From NCBI GenBank assembly GCA_016712285.1, contig JADJRK010000001.1, positions 4,058,761-4,122,760 on the forward strand: DNA of 64,000 nucleotides, written 5' to 3'. This DNA comes from Planctomycetota bacterium (lineage in GTDB: Bacteria > Planctomycetota > UBA8742 > UBA2392). Of this stretch, positions 24,334 through 33,996 are shown piece after piece. The position numbers were made by a program, and so were the translations under genes. Numbering within the stretch: the stretch's first letter is position 1; every line of letters begins with the position of its first letter. Below the pieces are notes generated by a model. The model saw only the letters and a list, made by a program, of their open reading frames with translations. It was not told the DNA's origin and searched no databases.

Positions 24334-25602
24334 ATGATCGCTTCATTCGCCCGTTATAGAGAAGGCATGTTCCAGATTGGTGCGATCGCGGTCGTTGCTT
24401 TCAACGTGGTTGTGTGGCTCGCGCTGCGCAAGCGTCTGGTTGCGGCATTCCCGCGCCGTGGCAAATGGATTGCGCTTGCGACTATACCCCTGCTGCTGCT
24501 GTTGCTGCACCCCTCCATGCTGATGGCCGTCGGCGGCTGGTCCGGCATGCGCGGTTCGCGCGGTTTGTTCCCGGAATGGTTCCAGATGTTCTGCGTGGCG
24601 GCCCAGTTCGGCTGGATTTTCTACGGCCTGATGCTTGCGCCGTTTGGCGCATGGCGGTTGATGTTGCGGCTGCGCGCATTGGCGCGCCGCGATTCGGGCA
24701 CGCCGTTGCAGCGCCAGCTCGCCGACAGCGGCCGGCGCCGGATGCTCACCAGCGCGGCGCTGATGGTGCCCGCCGCAGCCATGGTGCTTGGTGGCGGCAG
24801 CGTGCTGGCATCGCGTGTGGTGCCGTCGGTCACGCGCATCCGGTTGCGAGTGCCGCGCGAGATGACCAGCCTGCACGGGCTGACCATCGCGCAATGCAGC
24901 GATGTTCACGTCGGCAGCTACATGGGCCGTGAGCGGCTTGCCGAAATTCGCGATGCCATGAACGCCACGGGTGCGGACTATCACGTCGTGACCGGCGACC
25001 TGGTAGACAACCACGTAAGCCAGATGGAACTTGCCACACAGTTTCTGCGCGAGCTGAAACCGCGGCGCGAATCATTCCAGTGCATGGGCAACCACGAGTA
25101 CATCGCGGCCCGCAGCGCCGACGTGAAGACCATTGTCAGCGGCCTGCATGAGACGGGCGCTTCGATGCTGATCGACGAGGCGCGCGTGATTCGTGTCGGC
25201 AGCGACCACTTCTGGATGGGCGGCATCGACTATCCCCGCAACCGCGACCAGAGCGTGAGCGGCCGCGACAACCACCGCGACAGCCTGCTGGCCACGCTGG
25301 CACAGATGAGCGACGATGGCGCGCCGCGCATCGTGCTGAGTCACCATCCGCGCGCCTTTTTTGACGCGCGCGAAATGCAGCTTGACCTGATGCTGAGCGG
25401 GCACACCCACGGCGGCCAGATCAAGCTGGGCCGCGTGGGCGATGCGGCGCTGACGCCGATCCTGCCGCTCGATTACTACCACAACGGGCATTACCAGCAT
25501 GAGGGCCGCAGCCTTTACGTGAACGCCGGCGCCGGCGGTTGGCTGCCAGTGCGCATCAATTGCCCGCCCGAGATCACGTTGATTGAACTGGTTTCAGCCT
25601 GA
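24334..25602 (+). CDS. membrane-anchored metallophosphoesterase paralog 1 (calcineurin-like, internal twin-arginine-like motif)
   Basis: Three to four N-terminal TM helices, GRRRMLTSAAL motif, then DVHVG..GDLVDN..GNHEY..SHHP..GHTHGGQ metallophosphoesterase motifs; the antisense-of-nadA 5' part of the 848-aa ORF is rejected. Confidence 0.75.
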   Translation: MIASFARYREGMFQIGAIAVVAFNVVVWLALRKRLVAAFPRRGKWIALATIPLLLLLLHPSMLMAVGGWSGMRGSRGLFPEWFQMFCVAAQFGWIFYGLMLAPFGAWRLMLRLRALARRDSGTPLQRQLADSGRRRMLTSAALMVPAAAMVLGGGSVLASRVVPSVTRIRLRVPREMTSLHGLTIAQCSDVHVGSYMGRERLAEIRDAMNATGADYHVVTGDLVDNHVSQMELATQFLRELKPRRESFQCMGNHEYIAARSADVKTIVSGLHETGASMLIDEARVIRVGSDHFWMGGIDYPRNRDQSVSGRDNHRDSLLATLAQMSDDGAPRIVLSHHPRAFFDAREMQLDLMLSGHTHGGQIKLGRVGDAALTPILPLDYYHNGHYQHEGRSLYVNAGAGGWLPVRINCPPEITLIELVSA

Positions 25603-26909
25603 TGCGCTACGTGATGGAGGAGTTGCTGGGCGGCATGATGGTCGTCTTCAACATTATCGGTTTTCTGGTCACCTTGCTGAACGTGCTGACGTTCCTGGCG
25701 CTGCGTCGCCGCATCAAGCTGGCGTTTCCGCGGCACAGCGGCTGGGCGACGCTGGGCGTGGGCATTCCGTTCTGGATCATGCTGCACCCGGGTTTGTTCC
25801 TGATGTTCGGCGGGATTTCCGGGTTGATGGCGATTCGCGATGATTCGCCCATCTGGTTCGGCATTGCTGCGATGGCCTGTCAGTTTGCCGCCTGGGTGTA
25901 TGGCGGCGGCTTGCTGATCAAGGGCGCGCCCGGCGCGCTGCTTGATGGCGGGCGCCGGTTGCGCCGCGTGCTGCGGCGCGAAAAGGCGGGCTCGCCGGCT
26001 GAGCAGCGGCTGGTCGATGAGGGCCGGCGCCGCATGCTGGCCAAGGCGGCGCTGACTGTGCCCGCGGCGATAGTCGCGACGGCAGCGGGCGGCGCGCTGG
26101 CGTCGCGCGTGGTCCCGCGCGTGACACGATTGCAACTGCCGGTGCGGCGCGAGTTGACGCAACTGCACGGCATGACGATTGCGCAGGTCAGCGACGTGCA
26201 CGTGGGCAGCTATATGGGCTGGGATCGGCTTGCCGAGATTCTGGGCGTCATGAACTCGACGAACGCCGACTGGTTCGTGATCACCGGCGACCTGATTGAC
26301 AACGACGTCGCGCAGCTTGAGTTGGCGCAGCGTTTCATCAACGGCATGAAGCCGAAACGCCAGACTTTCATGAGCATGGGCAACCACGAGTACATCGCGG
26401 CCCGCACCGGCGACACCCAGGGCATTGTGGCCGCGCTGAAAGACACGAAGGCGACGCTGCTGATCGACGAAGCCGAGAAGCTGAACGTCGGCGGCGCGCA
26501 CCTGTGGCTGGGCGCGATTGACCACCCGCCGCAGATGACGCTGCCGCGCCTGCACGACCGCAGCACCGAGGAAAGCCTGCAACAGGTGCTTGCGAACGTG
26601 CACGACGACGGCGCGCCGCGCATTCTGCTTTCGCACCACCCGCGCACGTTTAACGTGATTCGCGAGCACCCGGTGGATTTGACGCTGAGCGGCCACACCC
26701 ACGGCGGGCAGATCAAGCTGGGGCGCATCGGCGACTACGCGCTGACACCCGTGCTGCCCTTCGAGCACTACCACAACGGGTTCTATGAGCACAACGGCCG
26801 GCGGCTGTACGTAAACGCGGGCGCCGGCGGCTGGATGCCAGTAAGAATCAACTGCCCGCCCGAGATCACACTGGTAGAGTTGGTGCCGGCGCAAGCAACG
26901 AACGCCTGA
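25602..26909 (+). CDS. membrane-anchored metallophosphoesterase paralog 2
   Basis: Same architecture and motifs as paralog 1; start ATG overlaps the paralog 1 stop (TGATG). Confidence 0.8.
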   Translation: MRYVMEELLGGMMVVFNIIGFLVTLLNVLTFLALRRRIKLAFPRHSGWATLGVGIPFWIMLHPGLFLMFGGISGLMAIRDDSPIWFGIAAMACQFAAWVYGGGLLIKGAPGALLDGGRRLRRVLRREKAGSPAEQRLVDEGRRRMLAKAALTVPAAIVATAAGGALASRVVPRVTRLQLPVRRELTQLHGMTIAQVSDVHVGSYMGWDRLAEILGVMNSTNADWFVITGDLIDNDVAQLELAQRFINGMKPKRQTFMSMGNHEYIAARTGDTQGIVAALKDTKATLLIDEAEKLNVGGAHLWLGAIDHPPQMTLPRLHDRSTEESLQQVLANVHDDGAPRILLSHHPRTFNVIREHPVDLTLSGHTHGGQIKLGRIGDYALTPVLPFEHYHNGFYEHNGRRLYVNAGAGGWMPVRINCPPEITLVELVPAQATNA

Positions 26910-26983
26910 CCGTGGCGCACGGGGCCTGGGAGTCTGGTGCCTGACCCCTTTTGCCCCCCAACGCGACGGCAGGCACCGGCTAA

Positions 26984-27059
26984 CGGGCAAGGGACAAAAG
27001 AAAACCCGCGGACCCAACGACCCCTGTCACTGCGGCTCCGGCAAGAACTACAAATTGTG
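26984..27059 (+). pseudogene. SEC-C motif remnant (GPNDPCHCGSGKNYKL*) with no upstream gene body
   Basis: Translation matches the C-terminal SEC-C metal-binding motif of the TPR protein at 33640-33714 (GPNDPCWCGSGKKLKKCHGG); a stop lies ~8 codons upstream of the motif. Confidence 0.45.
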
Positions 27060-27268
27060 ACACACTGCCGTGGACTACGCCCACGCCGCGAAGTAACGCG
27101 GCAAACGCACGATAGAGGAAGGCGGCGTGAGGCGGCGTGACGCGGCGTTGCGTCGCGTTCACAGATATCCAAGTTTTTCTGCACAATCGACTAACACCCA
27201 ATTCGGGGCTGACGCAAAGGCATACTCCTGTCGTTATGGATTTTTCTCCCCTATTCGAGGATGCAAAG

Positions 27269-27919
27269 ATGGAAAGTACAGTTGATCCTGAAATTCAAGC
27301 TCTAACGCTCGTCGGGCGGGCCTTCGAGAGCTTGACAGACACCGACGCACGGCTGCGTGTTGTGAACTGGGCGATCGAGAAGTATGGCATTTCAGCTGGT
27401 TCGCACACGACACCGGCCATTGTTCCTGAGACCACTGCGCAGGAGCAGGTTGCCCAAGCTAGTTCGGTCGTGGAGTCCAACAAAGCAAAGCGTCCGCGGG
27501 GAGCCAAGGCTGACAAGCCCTCGCTAAAACACGATCTGACGTTCCATGGTTCAGGCGAGGTCATGCCTCCACTGCGAGAGTTCTTTTCAGCCAAGTTCCC
27601 CACTGGGCAAGCCAGCCACCCGGCTGCATTTGCAGTCATCGCCCATTGGTTGAAAGAAGTCGGTGGGACAGAAGAGTGCGGAATCGACGAAATGTACACA
27701 GCTTACCGCTGGCTAAAATTGAAAATGCCAAAGGTTTGGGCCCAGGCGTTCCGCGATGGAAAGACGAAACTCGGCTTCTTTGATGATGGCGGGTCTAAGG
27801 GCTGTTATCGCCTTACCCATATTGGGGAAGACGCGGTCATTCGGGGAGAACTCGGTAAGGGCTCCAACATTCTTGGTGACATACAAGCCGACCCGCCAGA
27901 AGTTGATGGAACAGAGTGA
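27269..27919 (+). CDS. hypothetical protein (lower-GC island)
   Basis: ORF in ~50% GC segment; start at MESTVDPE with a GAGGA RBS; alternative starts at 27137 or 27236. Confidence 0.45.
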   Translation: MESTVDPEIQALTLVGRAFESLTDTDARLRVVNWAIEKYGISAGSHTTPAIVPETTAQEQVAQASSVVESNKAKRPRGAKADKPSLKHDLTFHGSGEVMPPLREFFSAKFPTGQASHPAAFAVIAHWLKEVGGTEECGIDEMYTAYRWLKLKMPKVWAQAFRDGKTKLGFFDDGGSKGCYRLTHIGEDAVIRGELGKGSNILGDIQADPPEVDGTE

Positions 27920-28367
27920 TCGCCCATCTGTCGCCCCGAACAACGGGGATGATAGGGAGCATGGTCAGTGTCCCACGCAACAGGGGAAGAGCGTAAACGC
28001 TCATCCCCTGTTGTGTATGGTTTGACTGGCTACTTCTTGCACCTCGCCAAGAAGCACCAGGCTTGGCGGCCATAGTCTGCGGCGTGCAGTACTTTGCCAC
28101 TCCGCCAATGTTTGAACGACTTGCAAAACACCCACTTGAATCCCGGTGGTGCCGGGAAAGGACCGTTTTTCATTTTGCCTCCACAAATCAGAACTAGTCG
28201 CGGGCAATCTGGCCCGCTGAGTGCGCGCAATCCGTTGACGAAGAGCGTGTTGTGGAGTACCGTCTGAGTGTTCAGGTTCAGCGGTGGCAACAGCCATCGA
28301 TCCGGGAAAGCGCGTCCTTGACGCGTTTTCTCGCTTAAGGCGGATCCATACTACCTCGCTTTCCGGC

Positions 28368-28952
28368 CTATCTGGCCTTCTCCGTGAAGTCAACTGCCAT
28401 GGTTCTCAGCCAAGCGGACAGTCGCTCAGCTTCGGCCATGCTTAGGTCCATGGGCAGATTGTCGACCCGCACCACCCAGTCCGCTCGCAACGGGAAACTG
28501 TGCTGAAGCCCGCCGTACAATGGCCGAGATGACTGATGTTCAGCAGCGGAACTTGCCGCGGGACCCGCCTGCCGCTCGGACGACTTCCTTTTCTTTCCTG
28601 CCGCCCCCGAAATTCTCTCAGCAGCTGGGCTCGGCCTTCCCGCAGTGATGTTGGGTTGCCATCCCGTTGGGTTCGTCTGACGTTCCACGAAGTCCCGGAT
28701 TGCTTTGCCTACCCGGGCGGAGTAAGTTCGCAGCGACGGTGCGCTGACCTTGGGGTTGAGGTTTGCGAAGCGGCGAACCAGGACCTTCAGTTCCAAGCGC
28801 CTCACATCGCCCTTCTCTTGGTCATCCAGAATCGAGAATAAGCGTTCACAGGCCGACTTGATTGCCGCCGCCGTGACTGAGTTGTACCAGCCCTTGCTGC
28901 CCGCCAATTCCACGAACTCAAGCACATCCACTGTCGAGTATCGTTGGGTCAT
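28368..28952 (-). CDS. hypothetical protein (island)
   Basis: 194-aa ORF with a Lys/Ser-rich central linker; no recognisable motif. Confidence 0.5.
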   Translation of the reverse strand: MTQRYSTVDVLEFVELAGSKGWYNSVTAAAIKSACERLFSILDDQEKGDVRRLELKVLVRRFANLNPKVSAPSLRTYSARVGKAIRDFVERQTNPTGWQPNITAGRPSPAAERISGAAGKKRKSSERQAGPAASSAAEHQSSRPLYGGLQHSFPLRADWVVRVDNLPMDLSMAEAERLSAWLRTMAVDFTEKAR

Positions 28953-29171
28953 TTCCCACCTCCACCGTCAATTGTCTAATCCGCATAACCAAAAATCAAT
29001 GCCTTGCCGCGAGATTCTGTGACGAAGATAAATCAGCATCTGCATTGAGTTCCTGCGCCCGAGGGGTCACACGAGGTCAGGCGCATCGGCTGACGCGGTC
29101 CTACCCAAGAGCCAGCACTACTTGCGCAAGCGTTGCAGTCATCGGCTTGACCTGCGCCCCAGGGGGGAGTC

Positions 29172-29579
29172 TCAGGCTTTGGCGCCAGCCCACTCGATGG
29201 CTTGTTGTTGGTTGGCGAAGGTGTGGAACTGGGTGACCTTGCCTTTGTGGAAGGTGAAGACGTCGGCGGTGTGGCCTTCGCGCCATTCGGTTTCGGTCTT
29301 TAGCCTTACTCGTACGTGAACCAGCACGATGATCTTGTCGCCGGCGACGATGAACTGTTCCGGCTCGCAATTGCCTTCGGCCCAGGTTTCGCGCGCCTTG
29401 ATGATGTGGGCCTTGACGGCTTCGAGCCCGTGATATGTGCCGCCGTGCGGCGAATCAACAAACTCCGCCCGTTCGATCTGCGGGTCGAACGCTTTGATCA
29501 TCGCCTCAATGTCGCCCCGGTTGAGCGCGGCGTACACTTGCCGCAGCGTCTCCGTCTCGGCCGCCATTGGTTTGTCCAT
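29172..29579 (-). CDS. SnoaL-like / NTF2-like (ketosteroid isomerase-like) protein
   Basis: 135 aa; YAALNRGDIEAMIKAFDP...FTFHKGKV pattern typical of the SnoaL_2/NTF2 fold; upstream 5' extension rejected. Confidence 0.65.
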   Translation of the reverse strand: MDKPMAAETETLRQVYAALNRGDIEAMIKAFDPQIERAEFVDSPHGGTYHGLEAVKAHIIKARETWAEGNCEPEQFIVAGDKIIVLVHVRVRLKTETEWREGHTADVFTFHKGKVTQFHTFANQQQAIEWAGAKA

Positions 29580-30170
29580 GGTTCGCTCCGGCCGTAGTTG
29601 AACCAAGGCTGGAACGGCGTGGCAAGAACCCGGCAGGCTGCGGCGTTTTGGGTTTGCCGCTCGATGTATGCATGGCCGCCGGTCACTGCGGACCTTGCGA
29701 GTGGTTGCCGCAGGTCGCACGCATACCCGTCGCTGGCGCTCCGGGCTCTTGTTCTCCGGTTCGAACGCGGCGTCGTTGGCGTTGCTCCTGTGAAATCCCT
29801 GCACTGAATTACTGACACACCCACTTTGTCTTAACAATTGGGGGGTATGTTCTTCGCGACTGGCGAGGAATACGGCTATCAGCGCCCTTTTGCCACAGCC
29901 CCGATCCTTTCGAGCGACCCTTGGCGATGCCACCCCTCTCGCGCCCCCTGTGGGCGCGTCTTTGTTTTCCCGGAGAATCCATGACTCGACCGTTCCACCG
30001 CGTGCGGCTGCTTCGTTGCCTGGGCTGCGCACTGCCGGCCGGCTCTCGCCCCTTGCCCTTGCCGAGGGCCCCCTGATGCGCTGCCGCTACTCTCTGCTTC
30101 GTGTGCGCTCGTGTCGCCGCTCCCGAAAACTTGTGCGCCGTGACCCGGCCTTCCTGCGCAAGGGGGCAAA

Positions 30171-31499
30171 ATGACGCCCGACTGGATCCAGCAAGCCGAG
30201 AACTGGTGCGCGTCGGTCGAGAATTCGACAGCCGGCTTGATGCTGATCTCGGCGCTGGTGAGCCTTGGCAACGCTGCTGTGTTCTGGGTGCTGGTGCGTC
30301 GCATTAGGGGGGTCAGACCCCATTTTGCAGGCAAAATGGCGTCAGACCCATGGTGCTGGCTGATCGGCGTGCCGTACTGGCTGCTGCTGCTGCCGATGCT
30401 GGCGATGGCGGTTGGCGGGCACGGGGCCGCAGAGGCCTTTCACTCGTTGCTGCCGGCGCCGCTTGCTGTGGCGTGCATGGCGTTTCAGTTTGCGGTCTGG
30501 GTTTATGGCGGCGTGCTGCTGATTGGCCTGGTTGTGCGGGGTAGCTTCGGCGTCTTCGCCGGTGACCGCTTTTCACGAACAGAAACGGGGACAGTCCCTC
30601 GGCCTTCGGCCGGGGACAGTCCCCCCTCCGACAGTCCCCAATCGCGGCGCGACTTCCTGCGCAAAGCCGCGTTTGGTGTGCCTGCGGTGATTGTTACGGC
30701 TGCAGCCGCCGGCGGGGTTTGCAGCCAGTTGCCGCCAGTGATTCGGCGCGTGCAACTGCCGGTGCGCGCGCCCGGTTTGCGCGGCTTGCGGATTGTCCAG
30801 TTTAGCGACGTGCACATTGGCAGCTATCTTGAGCGTGACCGGCTGCGTGAGATCTCCGAGGCCGTGAACGCGCAGCGCCCGGACCTGGTTGTGTGCACCG
30901 GCGACCTGATCGACAACCGGCTTGAGCAACTGGAGTTCGCGCAGAACCTGCTGGGGCGCCTGAAGCCGCGCGTGGGCACGTTCATGTGCATGGGCAACCA
31001 TGAGTACATCGCGGCGCAGGGCGACGAGGCGGCTGTGAAAGCAGCCTACGCCGAGGCGGGCGCGACGGTGCTGGTGGACACTGCGATCAAGCTGCCGCTG
31101 GGGGGCTCGCACCTGTGGCTTGCGGGCACGGACTTCCCCGGCGCACCGGGGGGTTCACTGGGCGATCGGCCGAGCACAGCCGAAAGCATGGACCGTGTGC
31201 TGGCTGACATGCGCGACGACGGCGCGCCGAGGATTGTACTTTCGCATCATCCCAAGACATTCTTTGAAGGCCGCGAGCGGCAGATCGACCTGATGCTGAG
31301 CGGCCACACACACGGCGGGCAGATCAGCCTGGGGCGCATTCACGACCACGCGCTCACGCCCAACCTGCCCTTCGAGTTCTACCACAAGGGCCTGTACGAG
31401 CACGAAGGCCGGCGCCTGTACGTCAACAGCGGCATCGGAAGCTGGCTGCCCGTGCGCATCAACTGCCCGCCCGAGGTGACGCTGGTCGAGCTGGTGTAG
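30171..31499 (+). CDS. membrane-anchored metallophosphoesterase paralog 3 (twin-arginine motif SRRDFLRKAAFGV)
   Basis: Same architecture as paralogs 1 and 2; clear S-R-R-x-F-L-K Tat-like motif ahead of the phosphoesterase domain. Confidence 0.8.
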   Translation: MTPDWIQQAENWCASVENSTAGLMLISALVSLGNAAVFWVLVRRIRGVRPHFAGKMASDPWCWLIGVPYWLLLLPMLAMAVGGHGAAEAFHSLLPAPLAVACMAFQFAVWVYGGVLLIGLVVRGSFGVFAGDRFSRTETGTVPRPSAGDSPPSDSPQSRRDFLRKAAFGVPAVIVTAAAAGGVCSQLPPVIRRVQLPVRAPGLRGLRIVQFSDVHIGSYLERDRLREISEAVNAQRPDLVVCTGDLIDNRLEQLEFAQNLLGRLKPRVGTFMCMGNHEYIAAQGDEAAVKAAYAEAGATVLVDTAIKLPLGGSHLWLAGTDFPGAPGGSLGDRPSTAESMDRVLADMRDDGAPRIVLSHHPKTFFEGRERQIDLMLSGHTHGGQISLGRIHDHALTPNLPFEFYHKGLYEHEGRRLYVNSGIGSWLPVRINCPPEVTLVELV

Positions 31500-31589: not shown

Positions 31590-32642
31590 ATGACTGTACC
31601 GGTCTATTTGGTGGCAGGGTTTCTTGGGTCGGGCAAGACGACACTGATGAAGCGGCTGCTGGAGCACCTGAACGCCCGCGGCGAAAAGCCGCTGGTGCTG
31701 ATGAACGAGTTTGGCGAAAGTAACATCGACAACGATTTGCTTGAGGGCAGCAACGCGCAGATGCGCGAGCTGATTGACGGCTGCATCTGCTGCACCAGCA
31801 AGACCGAGCTTACCAAGACGCTGTACGACATCGTTGCCAGCGACAAGCCCAGCAGCATCCTGATGGAAGCCACGGGGCTGGCTGACCCGGTCGAGATTCT
31901 GGACATCTGCACGCTGCCCAACCTGCTGGACAAGTTGACGCTGCGCACGATCGTCAGCGTGGTGGACGTGAACCGCTGGGGCAAGGTGGCGCAGGCCGAG
32001 GCGCTGATGAAGCGCCAGGCGAAGTTCGCCGACATCGTGCTGCTGAACAAGACTGACCTGGTGGACGCGGCGGTGTCAGAGCGCGTTGAGTCGGAGGTTC
32101 GCAAGCTCAACGCGCGCGCCAGCCTGCACCGCACGCAGCGCGCAGAAGTGGACATCGCGGGCATTCTTGACGCCGGCGGCACCGAAGTCGTCAACGACGA
32201 CAAAGACCACAGCCACTGCGACCACGAACACGACCACTGCGAACACACCGGCGACGGCCACGCACACCACCACCACAAGCACGAGCACAGCCACGACCAC
32301 TACCTCAGCCTGACGCTGCGCCCGCACGGCAAAGCCGACAAGGCGCGATTCAACGACTTTTTGAACGAGGGGTTGCCCGGCTTGCTGCGCCTGAAGGGTT
32401 TCTTGCAGGTGCAGGGCGTTGAGCCGCAGGCGATTGTGCAGTGGACCGCCGGCGACTGGGAGATGATCCCGCGGCCCGAGATCTTGAAGCCCAAGCCCGA
32501 CGTGCTGGTGTTCATCGGCGAAGAGCTGGACCACAAGCTGATCCGGCAAAGGCTGGAAGCCACGGGCCTGCACTTCCACGACGAGGGCGGGCACCACCAC
32601 CACGACCACGCCCACGAACACGCACACCACCATGAGCATTGA
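31590..32642 (+). CDS. COG0523-family metallochaperone GTPase (CobW/ZigA/YciC-like), histidine-rich
   Basis: P-loop GFLGSGKTT, GCICCT metal-binding motif, His-rich insert (DHSHCDHEHDHCEHTGDGHAHHHHKHEHSHDH) and His-rich C-terminus. Confidence 0.85.
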   Translation: MTVPVYLVAGFLGSGKTTLMKRLLEHLNARGEKPLVLMNEFGESNIDNDLLEGSNAQMRELIDGCICCTSKTELTKTLYDIVASDKPSSILMEATGLADPVEILDICTLPNLLDKLTLRTIVSVVDVNRWGKVAQAEALMKRQAKFADIVLLNKTDLVDAAVSERVESEVRKLNARASLHRTQRAEVDIAGILDAGGTEVVNDDKDHSHCDHEHDHCEHTGDGHAHHHHKHEHSHDHYLSLTLRPHGKADKARFNDFLNEGLPGLLRLKGFLQVQGVEPQAIVQWTAGDWEMIPRPEILKPKPDVLVFIGEELDHKLIRQRLEATGLHFHDEGGHHHHDHAHEHAHHHEH

Positions 32643-33714
32643 TTGGCTTGAAGCGGAATCTGCCATTGATGAACGCCTTGCGCTGCAGAAGCGGCGTGAG
32701 GCGCTGGAAGCCGCATTTGACGCCGACAACACCAACGCCGAGAACGCGCTCAAGCTGATTCTCACGCTTGACCAGCTTGGCGTGGCGCCGCAGGAAATCG
32801 CCACCCGCTGCGAACCCGCCTTCCAGGCCAACCCGCGCGATGCCGCACTCATGGCGTGGCTCAGCCAGCTCAGCTACCGGCTTGGCCAGCTCAAGATCTG
32901 CATGGTCACGGCCAAGCACGCAGCCACGCTCGACCCTGACGAGCCGATGGCCAATTTCACGCTGGCGCAGGTGCTGCTGTACTCGAAGGCCCATGAGGAT
33001 GGCCTGCGCTACGCCAAGCGCGCGTGGGATGTCGGCCACGCAACGCACTATCATGCGCAGATCGGGCGGCTTTACTGCATCCTGCTCGCGCGCCTCAAGC
33101 GCTGGGATGAAGCCTATGGATTCCAGAACGAGCGCCTGGCCGAGCGCCCGGACGATTCGCAGGCCGTGATCGACACCGCCGACCTGCTGCAGGAAATGGG
33201 CAAGCGCGAAGAGGGCGAAGCGCTTCTTGAGAAGGCGCACGAGAAGAAGCCCCGAGACACCGACCTGCTGTTTCGCATTGCCGTCGGCTACTTCGAGAAC
33301 GAAGACAACCTGACGGCGCGCCGCTGGGTGGACAAGCTGATTGACGCCGATGCCCAGCACCTGGAGGGCTGGAACCTGCGAAGCCAGATTCGGCTGAAGC
33401 TGGGCGACTTTGCGGGCGCGCTGGCGGACCACGAGATGATCCGTGAGCTGAGCAAGACGATGCCGCTGGACCAGTCGTTTCGCGCGACATGCCTTGAAGG
33501 CCTGGGTCGCAAGGAAGACGCGATTGCCGCGCTGAAGCTGGGGCTGGATGAAGTCAAGCAATGGCCTGAGCGCGTCAAGCAGTACAAGCAGCACCTGGAG
33601 CGGCTGCAGACCGTGCCGCCCGAGCAGCAGCAAAGACGCGGCGAGAAGCTTGGCCCGAACGACCCATGCTGGTGCGGCAGCGGCAAGAAACTCAAGAAGT
33701 GCCACGGTGGTTGA
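32632..33714 (+). CDS. TPR-repeat protein with C-terminal SEC-C metal-binding motif
   Basis: TPR-like helical repeats; C-terminal NDPCWCGSGKKLKKCHGG; 11-nt overlap with the COG0523 gene. Confidence 0.75.
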   Translation: MSIDWLEAESAIDERLALQKRREALEAAFDADNTNAENALKLILTLDQLGVAPQEIATRCEPAFQANPRDAALMAWLSQLSYRLGQLKICMVTAKHAATLDPDEPMANFTLAQVLLYSKAHEDGLRYAKRAWDVGHATHYHAQIGRLYCILLARLKRWDEAYGFQNERLAERPDDSQAVIDTADLLQEMGKREEGEALLEKAHEKKPRDTDLLFRIAVGYFENEDNLTARRWVDKLIDADAQHLEGWNLRSQIRLKLGDFAGALADHEMIRELSKTMPLDQSFRATCLEGLGRKEDAIAALKLGLDEVKQWPERVKQYKQHLERLQTVPPEQQQRRGEKLGPNDPCWCGSGKKLKKCHGG

Positions 33715-33922: not shown

Positions 33923-33996
33923 TTGGATATAGCTCAACGGTAGAGCACAGGACTTGGAATCCTGGAGTTGCGGGTTCAAATCCCGTTATCCCAACC
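33923..33996 (+). tRNA. tRNA-Pro (anticodon TGG)
   Basis: D-arm GCTCAACGGTAGAGC, anticodon arm CAGGA-CTTGGAA-TCCTG, T-loop TTCAAAT; one acceptor-stem mismatch (2-71). Confidence 0.75.

Follow-up and report, generated by a model that had tools for sequence, protein, structure and literature searches.

Tyrosine recombinases and phage integrases share an N-terminal, SAM-like core-binding domain (Pfam Phage_int_SAM_1 and related families), which is represented in the PDB by 3nrw, IntI4 (2a3v), XerD (1a0p) and the core-binding domain of lambda Int (2oxo), and in the enzymes it is joined to a catalytic domain with an R-K-H-R-H/W pentad and a tyrosine nucleophile. Recombinase-derived proteins that use the core-binding domain on DNA also serve as prophage regulators, as in the case of SPbeta MrpR (PDB 8a0a) and phi3T SroF (PDB 9rd5). 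MrpR and SroF both retain an entire recombinase-like body, although it is no longer active in catalysis. Gene B, one of two hypothetical genes that are described here, resembles the recombinase core-binding domain but has a 40-residue hairpin-helix in place of the catalytic domain, and has no Pfam match of its own. It differs from MrpR and SroF in length (194 residues compared with 317-320 for the matched chains), shows no detectable sequence similarity to them, and consists of a core-binding domain only, plus a different C-terminal motif.

Three further kinds of system invite comparison. In three-component or regulator-assisted type II toxin-antitoxin (TA) operons a separate DNA-binding protein is part of the locus, and the arrangement of a B-like gene with hicA and hicB in Phycisphaerae would fit such a separate regulator when set beside omega-epsilon-zeta, paaR-paaA-parE and hicAB. 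The gene B reported here, however, has no flanking toxin or antitoxin gene, and B-like genes are often solitary. A TA-regulator role for the family would be an analogy. Likewise, the only close homolog of the second gene, gene A, together with its HEPN_MAE_28990 neighbor, resembles the cassettes of a HEPN protein (Pfam HEPN_MAE_28990, RiboL-PSP-HEPN) and a small partner that occur in abortive-infection and TA-type conflict systems, whereas tblastn detects neither a HEPN gene nor a HEPN remnant in the window. Finally, B-family genes of Stx phages share the cI-N immunity slot with lambda rexAB-type accessory genes. The likeness is positional only, the proteins being unrelated to RexA and RexB in sequence and fold, and the window is not a prophage. 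We know of no exclusion phenotype for B-family genes in this slot.

A low-GC segment in a run of phosphoesterase genes

Genes A and B are located in a 64,000-nucleotide stretch of a Planctomycetota bacterium genome (contig JADJRK010000001.1, positions 4,058,761 to 4,122,760), referred to as the window. The original prediction placed them in a low-GC island of about 2 kb that splits a run of phosphoesterase paralogs. The island is real, but it is larger, reaching ~30170 and including a SnoaL gene. Its features are as follows.

26910-30170, no strand: window-specific segment, ~3.2 kb, between the metallophosphoesterase genes MPE2 (25602-26909) and MPE3 (30171-31499)
26889-26935 (approximate limits), plus strand: a copy, now diverged, of the intergenic sequence between MPE and CobW, at and just past the end of MPE2, from an alignment of MPE 3' ends and flanks (window, L018, L014 and L015)
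27010-27060, plus strand: pseudogene relic of the 3' end of a SEC-C motif gene, with the translation GPNDPCHCGSGKNYKL followed by a stop, from an alignment to its paralog and the orthologs of the paralog
27269-27919, plus strand: gene A (IPK87_17145, NCBI hypothetical protein), 216 aa
27920-28367, no strand: spacer of 448 bp between the convergent genes A and B, with no credible gene
27975-28016, plus strand: hairpin with 20-bp arms, 56 nt past the gene A stop (inverted repeat I1, 90% complementary, seen in folds)
28304-28332, minus strand: hairpin with a 13-bp stem, 36-64 nt past the gene B stop, read from the sequence and present in both folds
28368-28952, minus strand: gene B (IPK87_17150, NCBI hypothetical protein), 194 aa, with a GGAGG box upstream
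29172-29579, minus strand: SnoaL_2-domain gene, 135 aa (Pfam SnoaL_2, E 5.8e-14), also predicted at this length in the Logan assembly
29580-30170, no strand: non-coding stretch of 591 bp between the divergent SnoaL gene and MPE3, with no gene called and ORFs without a Pfam match

The GC content of the window is 62.3%, compared with 56.1% for the interval 27130-29000. When measured over intervals of 1.23 kb, mean GC is 62.3% with a standard deviation of 2.7%, and the dip at 27170-28400 lies ~2.8 standard deviations lower, making it the second-lowest trough of the window after one near 10.6-12.1 kb (52.5%). A value of ~50% had been put forward for this dip, which in fact measures 54.7%, while the ~58% given for the sequence continuing to ~29000 agrees with the 58.2% that we measured at 28400-29000. 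Within the segment, low GC spans ~27100 to 29400. The GC3 of gene A is 0.55 and that of gene B is 0.68, compared with 0.80-0.86 for the flanking phosphoesterase genes, and therefore both overall GC (54.7-58.2% against 62.3%) and GC3 show the atypical composition that is used to recognize genomic islands. Only ~50% of the segment is coding (1644 of 3261 bp), and no gene is called in its three long gaps. An independent assembly of a read set is 100% identical over 7963 bp spanning the region, indicating that the region is not an assembly artifact.

We compared the segment with the corresponding loci of five related Planctomycetota MAGs (L014 to L018), along the lines that the original prediction had proposed. 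In all five, everything between MPE2 and MPE3 or CobW is missing: CobW directly follows MPE2 in L018, L014, L016 and L017, and in L015 MPE2 is followed by a 283-bp spacer and then MPE3. No counterpart of the segment was detected by blastn or tblastn within 10 kb of MPE2 in these five loci, the short SEC-C relic being the sole match of 26886-30170 to the relatives. The SnoaL gene likewise gave no tblastn match in L014-L018 and is missing from their syntenic loci. Proteins flanking the site in L018 and L014 are 91-97% identical to those of the window. The stretch is thus absent from the syntenic position in five of five relatives, and the conserved housekeeping orthologs in synteny that had been named as evidence against the prediction were not found. 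Given this absence and the atypical composition, the stretch is accessory and very probably acquired.

The surrounding phosphoesterase/CobW/SEC-C locus is a hotspot where sequence has been duplicated and deleted. The number of phosphoesterase copies among the relatives varies from 1 to 3, and the left border of the segment carries the duplicated intergenic sequence and the SEC-C relic. The intact paralog of this relic is the TPR-SEC-C gene at 32632-33714; the relic has TGA where the paralog has a Cys codon, and possesses neither a start codon nor a long ORF.

The segment was also inspected for signatures of mobility. As originally noted, an integrase or transposase is absent, since no ORF in the segment could encode either. 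The site shows none of the marks of an insertion (integrase, tRNA junction or flanking direct repeats), a point against an acquired islet. There is no adjacent tRNA, the nearest being at 33923, 3.7 kb off and beyond intact conserved genes, and a search for att-like or terminal inverted repeats returned just 12-16-nt matches at chance frequency. One repeat pair, I7 (27203/29889), flanks the genes; by our own calculation, chance alone would yield ~3 pairs of this kind in 5 kb.

Gene A, gene B and their families

Gene A had been predicted as a protein of 217-260 aa. Its location and the 216-aa form hold, with the start at 27269 supported by a GAGGA box 7 nt upstream and by the only close homolog, which starts at the same residue, but the 260-aa form with a GTG start has no support. 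The protein consists of an N-terminal helical hairpin (residues 7-39), a disordered linker (~42-97) and a conserved C-terminal domain (~100-195). The latter is probably a winged helix, a tentative assignment because the model of the protein is of low confidence (pLDDT 52). Purifying selection acts on the domains. In agreement with the prediction that gene A has no recognizable motif, no match was obtained in Pfam, PADLOC or PHROGs, it matches no known antitoxin family, and a PDB sequence search with its profile gave chance-level matches only. The gene A family is rare. At the locus of its only close homolog (L001), the homolog and a Pfam-confirmed HEPN_MAE_28990 gene are convergent and 10 bp apart, and more distant A-like ORFs (L020 and Ralstonia-type loci) have overlapping downstream genes with an Rx4-6H motif; the relatives of gene A stand first in cassettes of two or three genes. 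The Rx4-6H and HEPN partner proteins show no detectable similarity between different loci, and one partner downstream of an A-like ORF has a weak PADLOC match to PD-T7-3 (E 3e-4). A visual likeness between the C-terminal domain of gene A and the N-terminus of the 248-aa Ralstonia partner was not supported by BLASTP.

Gene B is present as predicted, encoding 194 aa on the opposite strand to gene A. Residues 7-93 form a SAM-like core-binding domain of the kind seen in tyrosine recombinases, here standing alone. Beyond it, residues 104-145 are a disordered linker, and residues 149-185 a C-terminal beta-hairpin and helix. Neither gene B nor the 73 family members scanned has a Pfam Phage_integrase match. 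Lacking a catalytic domain and ending at residue 194, gene B therefore cannot be a recombinase. The prediction that it has no recognizable motif is correct for Pfam and PADLOC but not for PHROGs, as phrog_2602, a phage protein family that takes in the Stx-phage orf22 proteins, matches along the full length of the protein (E 1.2e-13, residues 3-184). A profile of the B family also aligns with orf22 of VT2-Sakai (hhalign probability 99.5%, E 2e-22), and the family comprises at least 790 clusters at 50% identity. Other searches with gene B were negative: NCBIfam returned only a sub-threshold chance match to SroA, and a PDB sequence search with its profile gave chance-level matches. Foldseek against BFVD gave nothing significant, and single-protein scans of viral contigs gave no match. 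No fused domain was found in the longer members of the family, the extensions of which are probably miscalled starts. This fold-level annotation, a recombinase core-binding domain without a catalytic domain, is of value beyond the present genome because it applies to phrog_2602 and the Stx-phage orf22 family, which are widespread and listed everywhere as hypothetical.

The neighborhoods of B-like genes that we sampled are few, ~8 independent contexts, and their choice was not random. In two Phycisphaerae genomes a B-like gene is followed by HicA, with a 4-nt overlap, and then by a short HicB that has no DNA-binding domain; the two B-like proteins are only 41% identical. In one metagenome lineage the order is DUF433, the B-like gene and then DUF5615/PIN. 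Fifty phage records, and also IMG/VR contigs, contain homologs of gene B. In Stx phages, B-like genes (for example VT2-Sakai orf22 and SH2026Stx1 gp20) occupy the cI-N slot on the cI strand, and in one Stx phage the B-like gene adjoins the PADLOC candidate PDC-S43/DUF3024, while in Yersinia phage YP3 it adjoins the integrase. In a further lineage a solitary B-like gene is stably syntenic between an aminotransferase gene and argG, indicating that the family does not travel solely with mobile elements or TA loci. The solitary gene B of the window may therefore be fully functional rather than orphaned.

These neighborhoods offer testable clues: the Stx prophage cI-N slot, the translational coupling to hicA-hicB and the DUF433 and PIN-like flanks. 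They suggest, as a speculative possibility, that the B family is a previously unrecognized class of stand-alone core-binding-domain proteins that act as DNA-binding regulators or adaptors of TA and prophage immunity modules, for instance by binding the operator of a hicA-hicB operon whose HicB lacks a DNA-binding domain, in which case the window copy would be an active solitary regulator and not debris. If the family does regulate prophage immunity or TA operons, this would bear on Stx-phage lysogeny and would represent a new TA-associated DNA-binding architecture. Literature searches for the B family, its accessions, DUF433 with DUF5615, and three-component hicAB with an integrase-like gene turned up no relevant work.

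Origin and function of the segment

Taken together, the segment is probably an accessory islet of ~3.2 kb (26.9-30.17 kb) left over from mobile DNA, which was gained by horizontal transfer, has since decayed in part and lies within the tandem metallophosphoesterase paralog run. No effector partner for gene A or gene B is found in the window, and the islet is therefore most likely not a functional TA or defense system. For this genome, a suspicious low-GC patch would thus amount to a small acquired islet without a recognizable working system. The two genes are unrelated, appear to be transcribed independently and both look like DNA-binding or adaptor proteins, with the SnoaL-fold gene alongside and co-directional with gene B. 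Gene B would bind DNA through its core-binding domain, its tail perhaps oligomerizing or docking a partner, and could serve to regulate or to connect other components, a role that its relatives may also have upstream of hicA-hicB and in the Stx prophage cI-N slot. Some relatives of the two genes are found beside HEPN or Rx4-6H partners (gene A), beside HicA or PIN-like toxins, or in the cI-N slot (gene B), and genes A and B therefore come from the TA, defense and prophage gene pool, with their effector partners missing here. They may represent orphaned regulator or antitoxin-type components that are either kept for some regulatory use or heading to loss.

The phage connections of gene B raise the alternative that the segment is all that remains of a prophage or integrative element that degraded through deletion of its integrase, att sites and other genes, leaving gene B as a phage accessory (moron) gene. 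Consistent with this are the phrog_2602 match, the placement of phage B homologs typically in the immunity region or beside an integrase, the low coding density with its long gaps, and the pseudogene relic at the left border. However, the segment contains no remnants of phage structural, replication or integrase genes and is accompanied by neither att-like repeats nor an adjacent tRNA, gene A has no phage match, and B-like genes also reside in non-phage chromosomal contexts. We consider this origin unlikely.

The two convergent genes had originally been viewed as a possible small accessory module for TA, abortive infection or defense. Convergent and accessory they are, but they do not behave as one module: the hairpin-rich spacer of 448 bp separates them, hhalign finds no relation between their families (probability 0.1%) and the two occur together in no other locus examined, each being found without the other. 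Type II TA genes are small, adjacent and co-directional, and usually overlap or lie close together in one operon, whereas gene A is on the plus strand and gene B on the minus strand, and no toxin domain is recognizable in A, B or the small ORFs of the gaps. A defense system was not borne out by the proposed PADLOC run, as A, B and the ORF at 28001-28393 have no match at E <= 1 and thus match no component of the known or candidate systems in PADLOC-DB 2.0. That A and B, perhaps with an element in the spacer, constitute a novel functional two-gene TA, abortive-infection or other defense module is therefore improbable, despite their residence in one acquired low-GC islet and the neighbors of their relatives (HEPN_MAE_28990 for A; HicA, DUF5615/PIN and PDC-S43 for B). 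Also in its favor, each protein has the layout typical of type II antitoxins, a predicted DNA-binding domain, a disordered linker and a small second domain, and the spacer is unusually structured. Against it, besides the lack of an operon, stands the absence of any toxin or enzyme domain in A and B and of any toxin remnant or domain in the gaps.

Remnants of effectors were sought directly. Small ORFs in the spacer and gaps have no Pfam, PADLOC or PHROG match of known function, and tblastn of the gaps found no remnant of HEPN, HicA, HicB, DUF5615 or DUF433. A HEPN partner of gene A decayed into the spacer was considered and rejected, since the best tblastn hit with the L001 HEPN and the Ralstonia and L020 partners scored 24 bits, crosses a stop and overlaps gene B. 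A decayed HicA, HicB, DUF5615 or DUF433 downstream of gene B was similarly rejected, as nothing was found. The small ORFs could still conceal a toxin of no known domain, or the structured spacer could encode one as RNA.

Least likely of all is that the segment is ancestral to the lineage and was deleted in the relatives, a differential-loss region rather than an insertion: the locus is prone to rearrangement (one to three phosphoesterase copies), the duplicated intergenic sequence and SEC-C relic show past duplication and deletion at this very spot, and there is no insertion signature, but absence from five relatives at three divergence depths would require several independent losses, the GC3 values of 0.55 (A) and 0.68 (B) fall well below the 0.80-0.86 of the host, and the nearest relatives of both genes are in unrelated organisms and phages.

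The 448-bp spacer folds more strongly than shuffled sequence, with z-scores of -4.25 for the plus strand and -3.80 for the minus strand. No Rfam match reached the gathering threshold within it, and the only match under relaxed conditions, of the hairpin at 27977-28017 to a model of group II intron domain 5 (19 bits, compared with a gathering score of 61), was treated as chance. Scans for promoters and terminators returned no more candidates than shuffled sequence did. The hairpin past gene A (27975-28016) may be a terminator, though it lacks a T-run and was not called by the terminator scan, and the hairpin past gene B (28304-28332), also without a T-run, may be another.

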